Shown: positions 10,786 through 33,983 of the stretch, piece by piece | Layout of the letters: every line of letters starts with the position of its first letter | How positions within the stretch are numbered: the stretch's first letter is position 1 | Origin: an uncultured Bacilli bacterium | GTDB lineage: Bacteria; Bacillota_I; Bacilli_A; RF39; UBA660 | NCBI GenBank assembly: GCA_951800155.1 | Contig: CATOJL010000002.1 | Span: 1 to 33,983 of the forward strand | DNA length: 33,983 nucleotides | Direction: 5' to 3' | Program-made: the position numbers and the translations under genes | Notes under the pieces: generated by a model | What the model was told of the DNA's origin: nothing | What the model saw: the letters and a program-made list of their open reading frames with translations, nothing else | Database searches by the model: none

Positions 10786-11907
10786 ATGAAATTAGAGATT
10801 AAACAAAATATTTTGATGGAACATTTAAATTATGTGATAAAAGGGATATCAAGTAAAAATATTATACCTGTATTAAATTGTATTAAGTTTGAATTGACCA
10901 GTGAAGGGTTATACTTAATGAGTACGGATAATGATATAGCCATTAAAACATTTATTACGAAAGAGAAAATTGAAAAAATTGAAATGTTAGGAACTATTTT
11001 AGTATCTGGACGATATATTTATGAAATTATTCGAAAATTACCAGGAGAAATCGTTAAAATAGAAGAAGTGTTAGATAATAAAATTGATATTAAAACAGCC
11101 AATTCTAACTTTAACTTAAATTGTAATGATGCATCAGAATTTCCAATTTTAGATTTACAAGATAGTGAAAATCCTATCGTAATGAATCAATCTGTTTTCA
11201 AAACGATTATTAGACAAACTGCTTTTGCTTCTTCTATGCAAGAATCAAGACCAGCCTTAACAGGAATTAATTTTACAATTAATGATCTTATTTTAGAAGC
11301 GAGCGCTACAGATTCTTACAGAGTTTCTAAAAAGAAGGTTGAACTCAAAGAGGCTAGTAAAATTCCTATTAATATTATTATTCCAACAAGAAACTTAAAT
11401 GAACTAATTAAATTATTAGAAGAAGATGAGGAAGAAATAGAATTACATATTTTTTCAAATAAAATTATCTTTAAATTTAATTCCATTGTTATGATGTCAA
11501 GACTGATTAATGGTGATTTTCCTGATTTATCAAAATTGATACCTGATACATATTATTTAGAAGTAACAGTAAACTTAAATGGTTTTTATAAAGCACTTGA
11601 TCGAGCCAGTTTACTAACAAACGAATCGGATAAAAATATTGTAACTTTTAGAACAGAGGATGATATCATTCAAATTTCTTCAAATATTCCAGAGATAGGG
11701 CATGTAGAAGAAACTATTGCTATGCAAAAAAATAATGAGAATGAGATAGAAATTAGTTTTTCCTCTAAATATATGATGGATGCTGTTCGAACTCTTGAGT
11801 GTGAAAATATAAAACTCATGTTTAATGGAGAATTAAAGCCAATTATTATCAAAAATGCAGAAGATGATAATTTAATTGAATTAATTGTTCCAATTCGAAC
11901 ATACTAA
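10786..11907 (+). CDS. dnaN: DNA polymerase III beta sliding clamp DnaN
   Basis: 373-aa ORF directly downstream of dnaA, with RBS AGGAGG. The sequence is typical of a beta clamp (RPALTGINF, ATDSYR, LINGDFPD). Confidence 0.97.
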   Translation: MKLEIKQNILMEHLNYVIKGISSKNIIPVLNCIKFELTSEGLYLMSTDNDIAIKTFITKEKIEKIEMLGTILVSGRYIYEIIRKLPGEIVKIEEVLDNKIDIKTANSNFNLNCNDASEFPILDLQDSENPIVMNQSVFKTIIRQTAFASSMQESRPALTGINFTINDLILEASATDSYRVSKKKVELKEASKIPINIIIPTRNLNELIKLLEEDEEEIELHIFSNKIIFKFNSIVMMSRLINGDFPDLSKLIPDTYYLEVTVNLNGFYKALDRASLLTNESDKNIVTFRTEDDIIQISSNIPEIGHVEETIAMQKNNENEIEISFSSKYMMDAVRTLECENIKLMFNGELKPIIIKNAEDDNLIELIVPIRTY

Positions 11908-18866: not shown

Positions 18867-19148
18867 TGACAATAAGGAATAGATATAGTAAATTCAAATA
18901 TGTGAAGAATACTTGTAAATCATGTTGGAATAAACAGTGGAAATTGCTACAATCTATCTATCAATATCTAATTGATAATTATAATAGAATAGAAATTCAA
19001 TTAAAATGCAGTTTCATATATGCATATTGAGGAAAATGAAAATCAAACATTTTGTTTTATTCATAGAAATCAAAAGAACAATAACTATTTTCAATAAAAT
19101 GGATGAGTCTATATTGCTCTTTTCTTAAATTTGTAGTATAGTAATATT

Positions 19149-19219
19149 GCACAACACTTATATCTGAACCAGGTCAGAATCGGAAGATAGCAGCCTTAAG
19201 GATCTCTAAGTGTGTGTGC
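19149..19219 (+). ncRNA. ffs: Signal recognition particle RNA, small (4.5S-like) form
   Basis: ACCAGGUCAGAAUCGGAAGAUAGCAGCC matches the conserved SRP domain IV (E. coli ACCAGGUCAGGUCCGGAAGGAAGCAGCC) with a GGAA tetraloop. The closing helix pairs GCACAACACUUA with UAAGUGUGUGUGC, followed by a T-run. The ends are approximate. Confidence 0.85.
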
Positions 19220-19265
19220 TTTTTTATTAGATTTATATTAAGGTGAAATATATTGGTGATTAATT

Positions 19266-29500: not shown

Positions 29501-29870
29501 TGATTCTTATGATAAGTTAGTGGAGGTTAAAAATGAACTAGAAGATCGTTTTGGTAAAATTAGTGATTCTTTAGTTATTTATATGCATGAAGAGTGGTTT
29601 GAGAAATTGGCTAAAAGATTACATATTAAAAAAGTTCGACAAACCGCTAATTTTATTGAGATTACAATTCCAGAAGAGTTAGGAATGGCTTTAGATGGAC
29701 AAAGTTTATTTTTAGATATCTTATCAATTAGTAAAATGTTTCGCTTTGGACACCAAGGAAAACAACTCCTTATTATTCTTGATATTGTCAAATTAGACAA
29801 ACACTTTATCTATTATTTAATTGACTTGATGAATGTTTTAGAAAAGTGTAAGAAAAAGGAAAATGAATAA
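26565..29870 (+). CDS. mfd: Transcription-repair coupling factor Mfd
   Basis: 1101-aa ORF. It has a UvrB-homology N-terminus and a CarD/RID-like region (GDYIVHSVHGIGRY). The SF2 translocase motifs are GDVGYGKTE, DEEQRFG and QLYQIRGRVGR. Confidence 0.97.
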   Translation: MKIFKQLFDVQGSEHKIMGLTKQLQAIYIYNLFVKEKKSILLVTSSLFEANQMYQMLMNFTNEVSLFPMDEFLTSEALATSPEFTVTRLETLNRIIENSPQIVVTNIMGFLRFLPQKGQYKNSYVVLEKGKEYSFNEVSEKIGNIGYSREAIVTKTGEVAIRGFVLDIFPISFEKPIRIEFWGDEIESIRTFDVETQRTLEEIDHVTIPPNTEFLVPNIQDVTSYKQKNLYKYTEVSMVSAYLEQPIIIYNDYTSFMSNYELLTEDIQRYREDALEEKDQKYMHSLEDMDKYEKLYFQKDDNDFVPIKNAQKYISHEIDQNFRKMAPLEVTLTKYLKEKKTIVCCLKNRYQVNHLNELLREENIVLTNEEEIYEGKINFIIHPLEMGFLYENYVVLSENDLFHDNSKVAKYKTNFQYGSKIKDITKLNIGDYIVHSVHGIGRYNGLKTLVKNGIKKDYLQIEYRDGDKLYIPVEKIDFISKYSSNESIVPKINKLGSTEWEKTKLKVRKKIENIAGKLLQLYAAREAAVGIQFSLDIAEQAIFESNFPYEETKDQLRVMEEIKADMENKKPMDRLVCGDVGYGKTELAFRAMFKAVASGYQAAYLCPTTILSDQHYQNALKRFAGFPVRIAILNRFVSPKKVKETLNDLEKGQIDIIIGTHRLLSNDVHYHNLGLLVVDEEQRFGVKHKEKIKELKTNIDILTLSATPIPRTLQMSMTGIRSLSLLETPPVNRFPIQTYVLEENSVIIKDAIYKELARDGQVFILYNHVEDMELKQKEIEKLVPEARVVYAHGQLSKNELENIMKKFIQKEYDVLLCTTIIETGIDIPNVNTLCIMDADRFGLSQLYQIRGRVGRSDKIAYCYLMYTKGKTLSDVSNKRLQVIKEFTELGSGFSIAMRDLSIRGAGDILGSEQAGYIDTVGIELYLKMLNEEVDRLHGKVVETEEESEQPLLDVETAITDDYVTDTDIKIEIHKKINTIDSYDKLVEVKNELEDRFGKISDSLVIYMHEEWFEKLAKRLHIKKVRQTANFIEITIPEELGMALDGQSLFLDILSISKMFRFGHQGKQLLIILDIVKLDKHFIYYLIDLMNVLEKCKKKENE

Positions 29871-29887
29871 ATATTTATAAAATAACA

Positions 29888-29916
29888 TTGACTATTTGTG
29901 AAAAAGAGAGTATTTT
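29888..29916 (+). promoter_or_regulatory. Candidate promoter at the cassette 5' edge
   Basis: TTGACT (29888-29893), 17-nt spacer, TATTTT (29911-29916). It is identical in unit 2 (33226-33254). The -10 is weak, and this promoter would give a 5' leader of about 175 nt. Confidence 0.35.
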
Positions 29917-30023
29917 AAAATTATAAATATGTGGCAGTATCTATACGTATTTATTAAAAGTAGTATTGTTTTTAGCTAGATAAAGACGAAAGAATATTTT
30001 TAATACATATTGATAACTGCTAA

Positions 30024-30059
30024 ATGATGAAAAAGTGCATCAATCTCTTTTCTTTCTAA
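30024..30059 (+). CDS. Possible 11-codon leader uORF (MMKKCINLFSF; MMKKYINLFSF in unit 2)
   Basis: ATGATGAAAAAGTGCATCAATCTCTTTTCTTTCTAA. Its last five codons and the stop lie inside the 5' arm of the leader hairpin. No recognisable SD lies upstream, so translation is unproven. Confidence 0.25.
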   Translation: MMKKCINLFSF

Positions 30060-30097
30060 ACACAATCTATAATTTTAGAAAGAAAGGAGGTTTTTTT
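30045..30097 (+). promoter_or_regulatory. Leader hairpin that sequesters the Shine-Dalgarno sequence and resembles an intrinsic terminator
   Basis: CTCTTTTCTTTCTAAA (30045-30060) pairs with TTTAGAAAGAAAGGAG (30074-30089): 15 Watson-Crick pairs plus 1 G-U, with a 13-nt loop. The 3' arm contains the AAGGAG SD. It is followed by G, T7 and the ATG. An identical copy lies at 33383-33435. Confidence 0.65.
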
Positions 30098-30484
30098 ATG
30101 AAATATGGAAAATATGTACTTACATTTGTGACAGTATTTCTATTTTGTATGATTTCAAATGCATCGGCAATCACTAAAACAAGTTTTTCAATTGAAACAG
30201 GTGCTAGTTGGGCAAAAGATATTGCAAGTACAGCACATAAAATAGAAGGAAATCATTTTTCAGCTGTAGAATGGACATACTCAAACAAAGCGAGTCATAA
30301 GATGTGGTTTCGAGTAATAGATGACTTTGGAAAAGTTAGAGGATCAGGACTTTTAAATTATCTTTCTACTGATGCGTTTCAAACAAACTTAAAATATGAT
30401 GATAATTTAAATTATGTTCTTGAAGCAAAACGTGAGCATATAACAAATCCACGAACTCTTGTTAAAGGGAAATGGACACCATAG
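30098..30484 (+). CDS. Small Sec-secreted protein, unknown family (paralog A, 128 aa)
   Basis: ATG lies 8 nt after AAGGAGG. The signal peptide MKYGKYVLTFVTVFLFCMISNASA has an AXA cleavage site. The mature part is about 104 aa, Cys-free and apparently beta-rich. The track's upstream GTG (30035) extension is rejected. Confidence 0.85.
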   Translation: MKYGKYVLTFVTVFLFCMISNASAITKTSFSIETGASWAKDIASTAHKIEGNHFSAVEWTYSNKASHKMWFRVIDDFGKVRGSGLLNYLSTDAFQTNLKYDDNLNYVLEAKREHITNPRTLVKGKWTP

Positions 30485-30498
30485 TTAAATATGTAGAG

Positions 30499-30531
30499 AA
30501 GGGGATTATAGTACAACAGATCCCCTTTTTT
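30499..30531 (+). terminator. Intrinsic terminator after small secreted protein A
   Basis: AAGGGGAT-13 nt loop-ATCCCCTT followed by TTTT. Confidence 0.7.
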
Positions 30532-30636
30532 ACAAGTCTTTGTCTTACCTAGTTTATTTGTGATAGCTTATTTAAAGGGATTTAGTGAGTTATCCTAAGT
30601 AAATTAAAAGAATGTATAGAATAGGGAAGTGTGCTT

Positions 30637-33192
30637 ATGATAGAGTTAAAAAAAATAAAGAAAGAATATAAGATTAAAAAGAAGAAAGTACAAGCCTTAG
30701 ATAATGTTAGTCTGATCTTACCTAATAAAGGAATGATTTCTATCTTAGGAGCAAGTGGAAGTGGGAAGAGTACGTTATTAAATATAATAGGTGGATTAGA
30801 TTCTTATGATTCTGGGGAGATGTTTGTTGATGGAGAAAATACAAAAAGTTTTAGTGAAAAAGAGTATGCGAAATATAGAAATAGTTATGTAGGATTCATT
30901 TTTCAAGAGTTTTGTTTGGTAGAAGAATATACAGTTTATGAAAATATAGCTTTAGTAGAACAACTACAAAAGGGGAAAGAGAACCCAGAACATATCAAGG
31001 AACTACTAAAAAAAATAGGATTAGAGGGGTATGAAAATAGAAAAATATATGAATTATCAGGAGGACAAAAGCAAAGAGTAGGAATTGCTCGTATTTTAGT
31101 AAAAGAGCCAAGAATAATCTTAGCCGATGAACCAACAGGTGCATTAGATAGAAAAACAGGAAAAGAAGTGATGGACTTATTAAAAGAAATAAGTAAGGAA
31201 ATATTAGTTGTATTTGTAACACATAATAGAGAGTATGCGTTAGAATATGGAGAAAGAATCATAGAGTTAGAGGATGGAAAAATCATAAAAGATACAAAAG
31301 AACAACAAGAAATTGAAAAAGAGAAGATAGAATATGAAAGTAAGGAAGCAAAGCTACCATTTAAGTATGCATTTAAACTAGGCAGGAAATTATTAACACA
31401 CCATAAAATAAGATTAAGTATATCAATTCTACTCATGACACTATCGAGTATGTTTTTAATCTATGCCTATTTTGGATTAACGTATGATATAGATGAACAA
31501 CACTTTGCAATATTAAAAAATAAAAATATTGATACTATAGAAATTGATAAGTCACAACACGGTATAAAAATAACAGATCGATCTCCTTTTCCATTAAAGA
31601 ACATGGATAAAGATTATATACAATCCAAATTAAATAGTCCATCGTATCCATTATATGAAATAGATGAAAATACAGATATTGCTCCATTTTTCAATACAAA
31701 TGTATATATACAAGAAGATATGTTCAATGATCCAAAAGAAGAACCAACCAATTTGTATACAAATAATCATATGATCTTAAAATTTGTCGAATTAGAAGAT
31801 GTAGATAAAAAATTGCCAATAGAGGAAGAGGTGATTGGGAGATATCCTATTCACAATCATGAAATTATGATATCGAATTATGTAGCAGATTTAATGATCA
31901 AGTATGGAATTTATGAGTATAAAAAGGATAGAGTTTATTATCCAAAAAGTTATGAGGAACTGGTAAATTCTTCAAAACTATTTCAATTTGGAAGTTATAA
32001 CTCTTGTAAAATCGTTGGAATAATTGATTATGATTTGCGTCCTTATGAAGAATTAAAAAAGTATATTTTTGGTGATTGGGATCATATGCCTGAATCTGTT
32101 TTTGAAATGTACCAAGAACTATACAGTAAACAAAGACAACTATATAATAAAGTATATATGAGTCAAGCGTTTATTAAAAATATGAAATATCCTGACAATC
32201 GAGAAATTGATAGTAATCACAATGTTATAGAATTGAAAATGGATAACCAAAAACTGTCAGGAACAAATTATATACGTGAACCTGTTACATACTATGATGG
32301 AAAAGAATGGAAGAAAATAGATACTTTAAAGGATAATGAAGTTTTAGTAAACATAAATTCTTTTGTAGAAGATTATGCGGATGCATTCGAATCTTATTTT
32401 GCTAGATATCCTGATCGCCCTATAGAAGAAGTAAAAAAAGAGTTTTTGTTACAGCAATTACCAAAGGAAAATATTATTGGAAAAGAGCTAAGATTAGAAA
32501 TTTATGAAGATACTATAAAATTGTCTAATCTATTTGAAAAGAAAGAAGAACCAGACAAAGTATATACGAATTTAAAGATCATTGGAATTATAGATACGAC
32601 AAGTAGTTATAGTAACCTAGTATCAAAAAATCTATTAAAAGAGTATCAAAAAGACTATTTTAGTTTAAAACGGATCCTTGTTTATGAAAATGATAGCAAA
32701 AAATTGAAAGAAATTTTTCATACTTTTCCTTATGAAGGAGATTATGTTATTAATAGTATTTATTCTACAGAGAGTATTTATAATGTTTTTCTTGGTGTTA
32801 AAGATATGATAATCCTATTATTTTTGGTATTTTTAATTCTATCTTTCGCATTAATTAGTAATTTTATGATGAGTAATGTTTTAGATTACAAAAAAAAAAT
32901 AGGAATATTACGTGCATTAGGTGCAACAAGAAAAGATATATTTAAAATATTTTTGATTCAAATTATTATTTTAGTATTTATCTTATTCTTTTTTAATTTA
33001 ATTGGAATGAAGATAGCAACAATTTATCTTTCCTATATGTACTCTACACCAGAAGCCTTTACATTTTATTATAACATGCGCCTTCTTTTGCTATTGTTAT
33101 GCTATTTAATAATAAGTATAACCATAGCAAGCATTTTACCTATATTAAGAATAACAAAACTAAAACCAGTAGAGGCTATTAGAAATGAGTGA
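30637..33192 (+). CDS. Fused ABC transporter, ATPase + MacB/FtsX-type permease, with a very large extracytoplasmic domain
   Basis: The NBD carries Walker A GASGSGKST, signature LSGGQKQR, Walker B ILADEPTGALD and H-loop VTHN. TM1 spans about aa 260-283 (track numbering), followed by a soluble domain of about 440 aa. Three C-terminal TMs end in the FtsX-like tail KLKPVEAIRNE. The start is placed at ATG 30637 (MIELKKIKKEY). Confidence 0.9.
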   Translation: MIELKKIKKEYKIKKKKVQALDNVSLILPNKGMISILGASGSGKSTLLNIIGGLDSYDSGEMFVDGENTKSFSEKEYAKYRNSYVGFIFQEFCLVEEYTVYENIALVEQLQKGKENPEHIKELLKKIGLEGYENRKIYELSGGQKQRVGIARILVKEPRIILADEPTGALDRKTGKEVMDLLKEISKEILVVFVTHNREYALEYGERIIELEDGKIIKDTKEQQEIEKEKIEYESKEAKLPFKYAFKLGRKLLTHHKIRLSISILLMTLSSMFLIYAYFGLTYDIDEQHFAILKNKNIDTIEIDKSQHGIKITDRSPFPLKNMDKDYIQSKLNSPSYPLYEIDENTDIAPFFNTNVYIQEDMFNDPKEEPTNLYTNNHMILKFVELEDVDKKLPIEEEVIGRYPIHNHEIMISNYVADLMIKYGIYEYKKDRVYYPKSYEELVNSSKLFQFGSYNSCKIVGIIDYDLRPYEELKKYIFGDWDHMPESVFEMYQELYSKQRQLYNKVYMSQAFIKNMKYPDNREIDSNHNVIELKMDNQKLSGTNYIREPVTYYDGKEWKKIDTLKDNEVLVNINSFVEDYADAFESYFARYPDRPIEEVKKEFLLQQLPKENIIGKELRLEIYEDTIKLSNLFEKKEEPDKVYTNLKIIGIIDTTSSYSNLVSKNLLKEYQKDYFSLKRILVYENDSKKLKEIFHTFPYEGDYVINSIYSTESIYNVFLGVKDMIILLFLVFLILSFALISNFMMSNVLDYKKKIGILRALGATRKDIFKIFLIQIIILVFILFFFNLIGMKIATIYLSYMYSTPEAFTFYYNMRLLLLLLCYLIISITIASILPILRITKLKPVEAIRNE

Positions 33193-33382
33193 TTTCATGA
33201 AAAAAGCAAAAATTGAAAAATGACATTGACTATTTGTGAAAAAGAGAGTATTTTAAAATTATAAATATGTGGCAGTATCTATACATATTTATTAAAAGTA
33301 GTATTGTTTTTAGCTAGATAAAGACGAAGGAATATTTTTAATACATATTGATAACTGCTAAATGATGAAAAAGTACATCAAT

Positions 33383-33435
33383 CTCTTTTCTTTCTAAACA
33401 CAATCTATAATTTTAGAAAGAAAGGAGGTTTTTTT
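33383..33435 (+). promoter_or_regulatory. Second copy of the SD-sequestering, terminator-like leader hairpin
   Basis: Sequence identical to 30045-30097. The uORF copy at 33362-33397 differs by one codon (Cys to Tyr). Confidence 0.65.
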
Positions 33436-33819
33436 GTGAAATATGGAAAATATGTACTTACATTTGTGACAGTATTTCTATTTTGTATGATTTCGAATGC
33501 ATCGGCGCTTAATGAAATACCTTTTTCTATTACTACCGATGGTATTTGGGTTGCAGATACTTTTAATGCGGCAAAGAAAATAGAAGGAAATCATTTTTCA
33601 GCAGTAAGATGGAAGAAATCAAGTCAAAGTGCGAATCATAAAATGTGGTTTCGAGTAACAGATGGTCAAGGAAGTATACAAGGATCAGGACTTTTAAATT
33701 ATCTTGCCTTAGATGCATTTAAAACGGATTTAACATATGGAAAAGTTTATCAACTTGAAGCAAAGCGTGAAAAATCTACAGGTTCAAAGGTTACTGTTTC
33801 AGGAACATGGGTACCATAG
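33436..33819 (+). CDS. Small Sec-secreted protein, unknown family (paralog B, 127 aa)
   Basis: GTG start in the position equivalent to paralog A's ATG. The 24-aa signal peptide is identical. By hand alignment the mature part is about 50% identical to paralog A, with conserved islands KIEGNHFSAV, HKMWFRV, GSGLLNYL and LEAKRE. Confidence 0.85.
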   Translation: MKYGKYVLTFVTVFLFCMISNASALNEIPFSITTDGIWVADTFNAAKKIEGNHFSAVRWKKSSQSANHKMWFRVTDGQGSIQGSGLLNYLALDAFKTDLTYGKVYQLEAKREKSTGSKVTVSGTWVP

Positions 33820-33833
33820 TTAAATATGTAGAG

Positions 33834-33867
33834 AAGGGGATTATAGTACAACAGATTCCCCTTTTTT
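33834..33867 (+). terminator. Intrinsic terminator after small secreted protein B
   Basis: AAGGGGA...TCCCCTT followed by a T-run. It is the same element as 30499-30531 with a 1-nt insertion. Confidence 0.65.
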
Positions 33868-33972
33868 ACAAGTCTTTGTCTTACCTAGTTTATTTGTGAT
33901 AGCTTATTTAAAGGGATTTAGTGAGTTATCCTAAGTAAATTAAAAGAATGTATAGAATAGGGAAGTGTGCTT

Positions 33973-33983
33973 ATGATAGAGTT
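33973..33983 (+). CDS. Start of the second fused ABC transporter gene (partial, runs off the window)
   Basis: ATGATAGAGTT and 150 nt of upstream sequence are identical to the start region of the 30637 gene. Confidence 0.7.

Follow-up and report, generated by a model that had tools for sequence, protein, structure and literature searches.

The 33,983-nucleotide (nt) stretch of DNA analyzed here (hereafter the window; positions 1 to 33,983 of contig CATOJL010000002.1, assembly GCA_951800155.1, from an uncultured Bacilli bacterium) carries two units of the same order, in which a leader is followed by the gene for a small Sec-secreted protein, an intrinsic terminator, and the gene for a fused ATP-binding cassette (ABC) ATPase/FtsX permease (853 amino acids). 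Each leader closes with a long hairpin whose 3' arm holds the Shine-Dalgarno (SD) sequence of the small gene. On balance we favor, with moderate confidence, the explanation that this hairpin serves as a conserved translational operator in cis, blocking access to an unusually strong SD within a leader of the aprE/STAB-SD kind. The control principle is familiar; the element itself is new and is kin to known translational-control stems.

The outline of the hairpin had been given by a sequence-only reading of the window, which described an 11-codon upstream open reading frame (uORF) ending inside the hairpin, an SD in the 3' arm, and a G, seven T residues and the start codon directly behind it, and this arrangement holds to the base. 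The two arms of the hairpin, CTCTTTTCTTTCTAAA (30045-30060) and TTTAGAAAGAAAGGAG (30074-30089), are joined by 15 Watson-Crick pairs and 1 G-U pair across a 13-nt loop, again as described, and RNAfold lengthens the stem to 19 pairs (30042-30060 with 30074-30092). Because the hairpin overlaps the ribosome-binding site (RBS), every mRNA of the gene must pass through it, a point on which we agree with that reading. At -20.2 kcal/mol (z = -6.68), the hairpin at 30042-30092 was not equaled by any of 200 dinucleotide shuffles and is far beyond chance. The RBS regions of units 1 and 2 are the most structured among the 29 genes of the window, with a probability of 0.86-0.90 that the SD is paired. The core SD, GAAAGGAGG, occurs at these two sites only within the 34-kb window, and its predicted duplex with 16S rRNA, calculated with an assumed Bacillus-type 16S tail, reaches -17 to -18.2 kcal/mol compared to -10 to -14 kcal/mol for the other genes. 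No significant complementary copy of the loop or of the arm was found elsewhere in the window. The sequence-only reading had also set a leader about 99% conserved between the units against a coding core that is not. The leaders differ at 4 of 216 positions (29885-30100 versus 33223-33438), which is nearer 98% identity, and the small proteins are 61% identical overall, with identical 24-residue signal peptides; the whole repeat (29870-30169 versus 33208-33507) is 96% identical.

We obtained 30 related loci by exact-protein look-ups and sorted them into nine lineages of the secreted-protein family. Lineages 1 to 4 (the window type, L003/4/5, L007-12 and L014/15) have proteins that are 61-97% identical, lineages 5 to 8 (L017, L026, L020/22 and L029) have proteins 43-50% identical to that of the window, and lineage 9 comprises L023-L025. 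A hairpin that buries the SD is kept in eight of the nine (43-97% protein identity), with folding energies of -12 to -24 kcal/mol, and in lineages 5 to 8 this is so even though the sequences of the arms and the loop differ. The stem has 19-21 bp in six lineages, and the stems of L020, L022 and L029 have 15-16 pairs with internal loops. In a shuffle test, eight of nine sequences gave z scores of -2.4 to -5.5, and the ninth, the L022 variant of lineage 7, gave -1.0. When each sequence's own minimum-energy fold was compared, anchored on the invariant AAAGAAAGGAG, compensatory double changes appeared at at least five stem positions, the pair types being G-C and A-U at anchor position -8, A-U and U-A at -9, U-A and C-G at -10, U-A, A-U and G-C at +5, and U-A and A-U at +6. 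A structure-blind alignment (MAFFT followed by RNAalifold) returned four covarying pairs. Covariation in homologous loci had been named as a check on the stem by the sequence-only reading, and since the stem is kept in eight lineages with such compensatory changes, the comparison shows the hairpin to be a real RNA structure under selection.

The divergence of the surrounding sequence points the same way. In the flanking genes (mfd and ABC), four-fold degenerate sites are only ~66% identical between lineages 1 to 4, and the central part of the leader has drifted freely, but the hairpin, the -35 box and a box of 47 nt at the RNA's 5' end are nearly invariant there; because of this difference, the alignment indicates purifying selection, not recent common descent, on the hairpin and the 5' box. 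Part of the loop, CAAUCUAUA, is invariant in the four closest lineages and different in the distant ones. The conservation of loop and 5' box at the sequence level in lineages 1 to 4 hints at a binding partner.

The leader upstream of the hairpin is also structured. A consensus scan placed a promoter ahead of each unit, TTGACW with a 17-nt spacing is conserved in seven lineages, and in the same number the start of the box RTAAATATGTG lies exactly 35 nt downstream of that motif's first T. The geometry TTGACW, 17 nt, TAYYNT, 6 nt, RTAAATATGTG (29888-29976 and 33226-33314) is nearly invariant. From this conserved arrangement of promoter and box we infer a transcription start (+1) at A29923 and a leader of ~175 nt. 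The predicted RNA begins with a stem-loop that, like the promoter geometry, recurs in all leaders and is part of the RNAalifold consensus of nine of them, in which all variation is from A-U to G-U. The 47-nt box, which can form this stem-loop or a long-range helix, is almost unchanged while synonymous sites have diverged by ~34% between lineages. A long-range helix of GGCAGUAUC with GAUAACUGCU is possible as an alternative fold and shows one compensatory pair (A-U to G-C). Rfam, searched at gathering score and at E <=10, gave no relevant match for the leader, the best E-value (0.19) belonging to unrelated microRNA and small RNA (sRNA) models. Two candidate features were set aside: an invertible promoter or long-range inverted repeat (29913-29928 with 30065-30080) was judged to be chance because it is not conserved in the L003 lineage, and a second promoter in the hairpin loop (TATAAT, 30067-30072) has no acceptable -35 and its hexamer is missing from the distant lineages. 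A lone low-depth RNA contig starting at 30079 was not taken as evidence for such a promoter.

Under the operator explanation, a pyrimidine-rich segment of the 5' arm would act as an anti-SD mimic, pairing with the unusually long SD AGAAAGGAGGU, and the RBS would be occluded in the free mRNA because of this pairing. Initiation would then be throttled or gated, as the intramolecular stem (~-20 kcal/mol) would compete with the SD:16S duplex (~-18 kcal/mol). The leader would open with a 5'-terminal stem-loop and close with a strong SD, which is the layout of mRNA-stabilizing leaders of Firmicutes, so the transcript may be long-lived and accumulate to high levels. The uORF would be an accident of one lineage, its A-rich sequence being more plausibly the pairing partner of the U-run, and the U-run itself would be accessory, serving as a spacer, as an extension of the stem or possibly as a partial terminator in some lineages. 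We give roughly equal weight to a fixed throttle and to a factor-gated switch. A trans-acting factor, protein or sRNA, may open the stem.

This combination has partial precedents. The aprE leader reportedly joins a 5' stem-loop to ribosome binding, the SD sequence (STAB-SD) that cry3A carries in its 5' untranslated region (UTR) is said to determine mRNA stability, and in leaders of this type the strong SD reportedly must be accessible to bind the 30S subunit. With aprE, the cry3A STAB-SD and hbs (PMC5737220), the leader described here shares a candidate stem-loop from the predicted +1, a very strong SD and a transcript that is abundant in vivo; unlike in aprE and STAB-SD, its SD is buried in a -20 kcal/mol stem. 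Judged by predicted duplex energy, the SD is very strong, as a stabilizing leader would require, but it is occluded by the stem, and the 5' stem begins at the +1 predicted from promoter geometry, with the abundant RNA contig described below starting 11 nt further on. Pairing of an anti-SD with the SD is known from the icaR mRNA of S. aureus, where the anti-SD lies in the 3' UTR (PMC3868564). The present hairpin resembles icaR and the SD-sequestering stem-loops of bacterial 5' UTRs in that the SD is paired with a pyrimidine-rich stretch similar to an anti-SD, which would keep ribosomes from binding, and in that the element is conserved with covariation; it differs in that its anti-SD belongs to the same leader, 13 nt upstream, and in that the SD is an 11-nt "super-SD."

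Several other explanations were considered. The hairpin and U7 could form a transcription attenuator that terminates before the start codon unless an antiterminator acting in trans, which could be a protein, an sRNA or a processive activity linked to the conserved 5' domain, permits read-through under some condition, with SD occlusion as a second layer. We consider this unlikely. At -19.9 kcal/mol, the hairpin with its U-run is the most stable of its kind in the window and about twice as stable as the real gene-end terminators (-7 to -11.5 kcal/mol); a loop of 11-13 nt is likewise present in the genuine terminator of this gene; and a U6-U8 run is invariant in six of the eight hairpin lineages despite ~34% neutral divergence. 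In consensus folds the A-rich start of the uORF pairs with the U-run, extending the stem over the start codon. Furthermore, no recognizable terminator follows mfd (29870-29888) or the ABC-FtsX gene (33192-33226) before the promoter and hairpin of the next unit, so read-through transcripts must enter the leader. Low-depth RNA contigs span 33055-33275. However, two lineages (7 and 8) keep the hairpin without the U-run, L020/L022 and L029 having GUACCUA or UAACA in its place (GGAGGGUACCUAAUG and GGAGGUAACAAUG), the combination of a 13-nt loop and a 19-bp stem is beyond the usual range of terminators, and the U-rich spacer between SD and AUG, GGAGGUUUUUAUG, is also present at the hairpin-free gene at 10786. 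Nor was an antiterminator pairing found in cis. The pairing of GAAAGAA (29988-29994) with TTCTTTC that the sequence-only reading had put forward lacks conservation, and blocking the hairpin does not make it form; a duplex of the 5' box with the hairpin region (-11.5 kcal/mol) was equaled by 6% of shuffles, and with either arm blocked no stable alternative emerged. In the mouse-gut RNA-Seq run X3, a 521-nt contig of depth 164 runs unbroken from 29934 through the hairpin and U-run to 30450, compared to a depth of 2-6 for the flanking genes upstream and downstream. At the contig level, the leader was never recovered in excess over the coding region in six RNA runs, and a small-RNA library held a contig of the coding sequence and none of the leader. 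Among the mouse-gut metatranscriptome runs, X3, X8 and X18 of study P3 contain the locus. The contigs show abundant read-through of the hairpin, and because they are assembled contigs only, they weigh little against termination. Thus, of the earlier view that the hairpin is sequestor and terminator at once, SD sequestration stands, conserved with covariation; for the terminator part the stable stem and U7 are present, but the U-run is kept in six of eight lineages only and the contigs read through. We therefore regard termination as possible in some lineages and not as the conserved function. A further, improbable idea is that the leader is a new signal-responsive riboregulator. A ligand, protein or sRNA would be bound by the strongly conserved 5' domain (box GGCAGUAUCUAU...UUGUUUUUAG) and by the conserved loop, and the SD hairpin, with the U-run in most lineages, would be the expression platform; what is switched on would be a hitherto unrecognized family of beta-sandwich proteins, secreted by gut Firmicutes and always accompanied by MacB-like ABC-FtsX transporters. 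Like dual-acting riboswitch platforms, the leader is long and conserved, with a structured 5' domain and a hairpin plus U-run over the SD; unlike them, it has no Rfam match, no anti-terminator or anti-sequestor pairing, and no U-run in two lineages.

The sequence-only reading had compared the uORF to the leader peptides of erm and cat genes, proposing that a ribosome translating or stalling on its 11 codons opens the hairpin. In such a model the 5' arm would melt and the SD would be freed, or termination prevented, as at ermC, cat, msrDL or bmrB. The comparison of lineages largely refutes this model, which now seems to us highly improbable. In the window's lineage, and there only, a short ORF does end in the 5' arm of an SD-hiding hairpin before a U-run, a ribosome terminating there would sit over roughly half the stem, and the geometry resembles that of msrDL-msrD (PMC10314930) and bmrB-bmrCD (PMC4191407), in which a stalled ribosome blocks a Rho-independent terminator. 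However, no SD-like motif is present in the 16 nt upstream of either uORF ATG, in line with the lack of an SD already remarked on in that reading, and none precedes any lineage's copy. The uORF reads ATG ATG AAA AAG TGC ATC AAT CTC TTT TCT TTC TAA, and the frame ending at this 5'-arm TAA has a canonical start in lineage 1 only: the L003 lineage has ATA ATA and the L014 lineage ATT ATA at the uORF position, the L007 lineage has an in-frame TGA five codons ahead of the TAA, in the L017 and L020 lineages no ORF stops within the arm or close to it, and the short ORFs of L026 are unrelated in sequence. The uORF is thus lineage-specific and probably untranslated, and because the hairpin is kept in each of the lineages just named, it cannot rely on the uORF peptide. 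Nor is an alternative second stem like that of ermC present, and the controlled gene is no resistance determinant. As an ORF with its own RBS, a conserved ORF and alternative stems were each looked for at these leaders and not found, the comparison places the leader outside the erm/cat, msrDL and bmrB class. Cleavage of the near-perfect 19-20 bp duplex by RNase III, which would liberate or destroy the RBS, would suit the 19-21 bp stems of six lineages, and the only sharply defined 5' end of an abundant RNA, that of the X3 contig at 29934, falls within a hairpin loop and 11 nt downstream of the predicted +1, a hint that processing may occur. The internal loops and 15-16 pairs of L020, L022 and L029 and the continuity of the X3 contig across the stem speak against this, and we think it very unlikely. 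The pairing of a U-rich strand with AGGAGG in a bacterium of a warm-blooded host recalls fourU and ROSE RNA thermometers, in which such a stem melts at host temperature. Known RNA thermometers, however, are far less stable than a mismatch-free stem of -20 kcal/mol, and the long perfect stem of the window copy is predicted to stay closed from 20 to 50 C, with a probability of 0.99 throughout that the SD is paired, as do the stems of other lineages; with no change in SD pairing over this range, a thermometer was rejected in silico and is scarcely credible.

Having set out these alternatives, we return to the operator explanation, against which a number of points must be weighed. Repression of translation by the hairpin is deduced from the predicted structure, and the mRNA-stabilizing role of the leader, with its effect on half-life, from analogy with known leaders; the high RNA level fits the latter. 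The RNA evidence consists of assembled Logan contigs with a flat mean depth, which give neither a leader-to-coding-sequence ratio nor 3' ends. By local standards, the hairpin and U7 make a better terminator than the genuine ones, so a transcriptional component is possible. The sequence conservation of the loop segment and the 5' box in the four closest lineages goes unexplained by simple occlusion. Lineage 9 (L023-L025) has no hairpin and a free SD; its small gene has no separate leader and lies 56 nt behind another secreted-protein gene. Finally, the 3' end of this bacterium's 16S rRNA lies outside the window, and the SD:anti-SD energies depend on the assumed tail.

Table 1. Positions of the features of both units in the window
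Feature	Position	Strand	Unit 2	Details
Promoter	29888..29916	+	33226-33254	-35 TTGACT 29888-29893, 17-nt spacer, -10 TATTTT 29911-29916; consensus scan
5'-terminal stem-loop	29923..29954	+	33261-33292	AUAAAUAUGU / ACGUAUUUAU; inverted repeat I21
Conserved 5' domain of leader	29933..30022	+		box GGCAGTATCTATRCRTRTTTATTAAAAGTAGTATTGTTTTTAG nearly invariant
uORF	30024..30059	+	33362-33397	MMKKCINLFSF, 11 codons; stop within 5' arm; TGC to TAC in unit 2
Hairpin 5' arm	30042..30060	+	33380-33398	AAUCUCUUUUCUUUCUAAA, pyrimidine-rich, anti-SD-like
Hairpin loop	30061..30073	+	33399-33411	CACAAUCUAUAAU, 13 nt
Hairpin 3' arm	30074..30092	+	33412-33430	with extended SD AGAAAGGAGGU
Core SD	30082-30090			GAAAGGAGG, inside 3' arm
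U7 run between SD and start codon	30091..30097	+	33429-33435	G30090 before, ATG 30098 after
Small secreted protein, unit 1	30098..30484	+		128 amino acids; signal peptide MKYGKYVLTFVTVFLFCMISNASA
Intrinsic terminator of small gene	30492..30534	+		GAAGGGGAU, 13-nt loop, AUCCCCUUUUUU
Fused ABC ATPase and FtsX-type permease, MacB-like	30631..33192	+		853 amino acids; Pfam ABC_tran and FtsX
Small secreted protein, unit 2	33436-33819			127 amino acids, GTG start

The window has a G+C content of 30%, and the genes upstream of the units are holB, a PSP1 gene, two methyltransferase genes, pth and mfd. Unit 2 repeats the layout of unit 1 at an offset of 3338 nt, with a GTG start codon at 33436 instead of the ATG at 30098. 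The small secreted protein has no match in Pfam or NCBIfam. Its AlphaFold model is a predicted eight-strand beta sandwich (pLDDT 79), and a Foldseek search against the PDB gave lectin and carbohydrate-binding module beta sandwiches at a best TM-score of <=0.5, with no confident match. A profile search gathered 78 clusters at 50% identity for the family. The best NCBIfam matches of the ABC-FtsX gene, TIGR03608 and MacB, are both under cut-off, and a fused gene of this kind (843-862 amino acids) lies downstream of the small gene in every fetched locus reaching far enough, where further proteins without a Pfam family are often also present. A lactococcin-972-type bacteriocin system was considered and rejected: the secreted protein has no corresponding NCBIfam, Pfam or fold match, and only the ABC ATPase domain resembles TIGR03608, below cut-off. 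A scan of GTDB genomes for the leader gave a sole match among species representatives, the mouse-gut metagenome-assembled genome (MAG) "uncultured Bacilli bacterium MGBC119797," and a scan of Joint Genome Institute (JGI) metagenomes with two patterns gave none.

In run X3, RNA depth drops from 164 to 2-6 past the terminator of the small gene. The stem of this terminator is itself kept by compensatory changes (GGGGAU/AUCCCC versus GGGGAUA/UAUUCCC; L003, L005, L007 and L014), and its loop is wholly different between lineages, which sets it apart, as an internal comparison, from the SD hairpin with its loop of invariant sequence. Between the units, the 127 nt that lead from the tail of the terminator across the intergenic region to where the ABC gene begins (30521-30647 and 33857-33983) are 100% identical; set against the 61% identity of the coding cores, such a match suggests gene conversion or a very recent duplication of the unit flanks. 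Paralogous secreted proteins are mosaics: P0004 (loci L013 and L006 hold P0002 and P0004) has an N-terminal half of the unit 1 type and a C-terminal half of the unit 2 type, and P0002 is of the unit 1 type with a unit 2-type C terminus. These mosaics point to recombination between cassettes with identical leaders, signal peptides and 3' flanks.

The ~100-residue beta-sandwich domain also occurs in giant proteins, as 14 tandem stretches in P0037 (4042 amino acids) and as 6 in P0081 (2443 amino acids), and the small secreted proteins may for this reason be free-standing copies of a surface or adhesin-type module. One family member, P0021, is annotated in a MAG of Methanobrevibacter sp./"Candidatus Methanovirga australis," which could reflect transfer into an archaeon or a binning error. 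In the distant lineages (L017, L020, L023, L026 and L029), the small gene lies within a conserved cluster that begins with a protein of 194-243 amino acids, with a weak CNNM-like transmembrane match in two cases, and continues after the small gene with proteins of 458-476 amino acids, or of 265 and 200 amino acids, without a Pfam family and then ABC-FtsX. Elsewhere in the window, a bacterial small signal recognition particle (SRP) RNA (RF00169, 63 bits) at 19139-19235, upstream of a dnaX-recR-type gene row, is an ordinary feature.

In summary, our analysis defines an unannotated, conserved cis-regulatory leader, without an Rfam match, that is made up of a promoter, a 5'-terminal stem-loop, a structured domain and an SD-sequestering hairpin. 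It fronts a secreted-protein family that matches neither Pfam nor NCBIfam, amounts to 78 or more clusters at 50% identity and, in uncultured gut Bacilli, goes together with MacB-like transporters. The locus also holds a caution for sequence-only reading, given that the erm/cat-like uORF vanishes once sister lineages are compared, and natural variants exist that have or lack the U-run and that have or lack start codons for the uORF. Because the transcript lies ~30x above its neighbors in one mouse-gut metatranscriptome, the small protein probably matters in the gut, as does its control.

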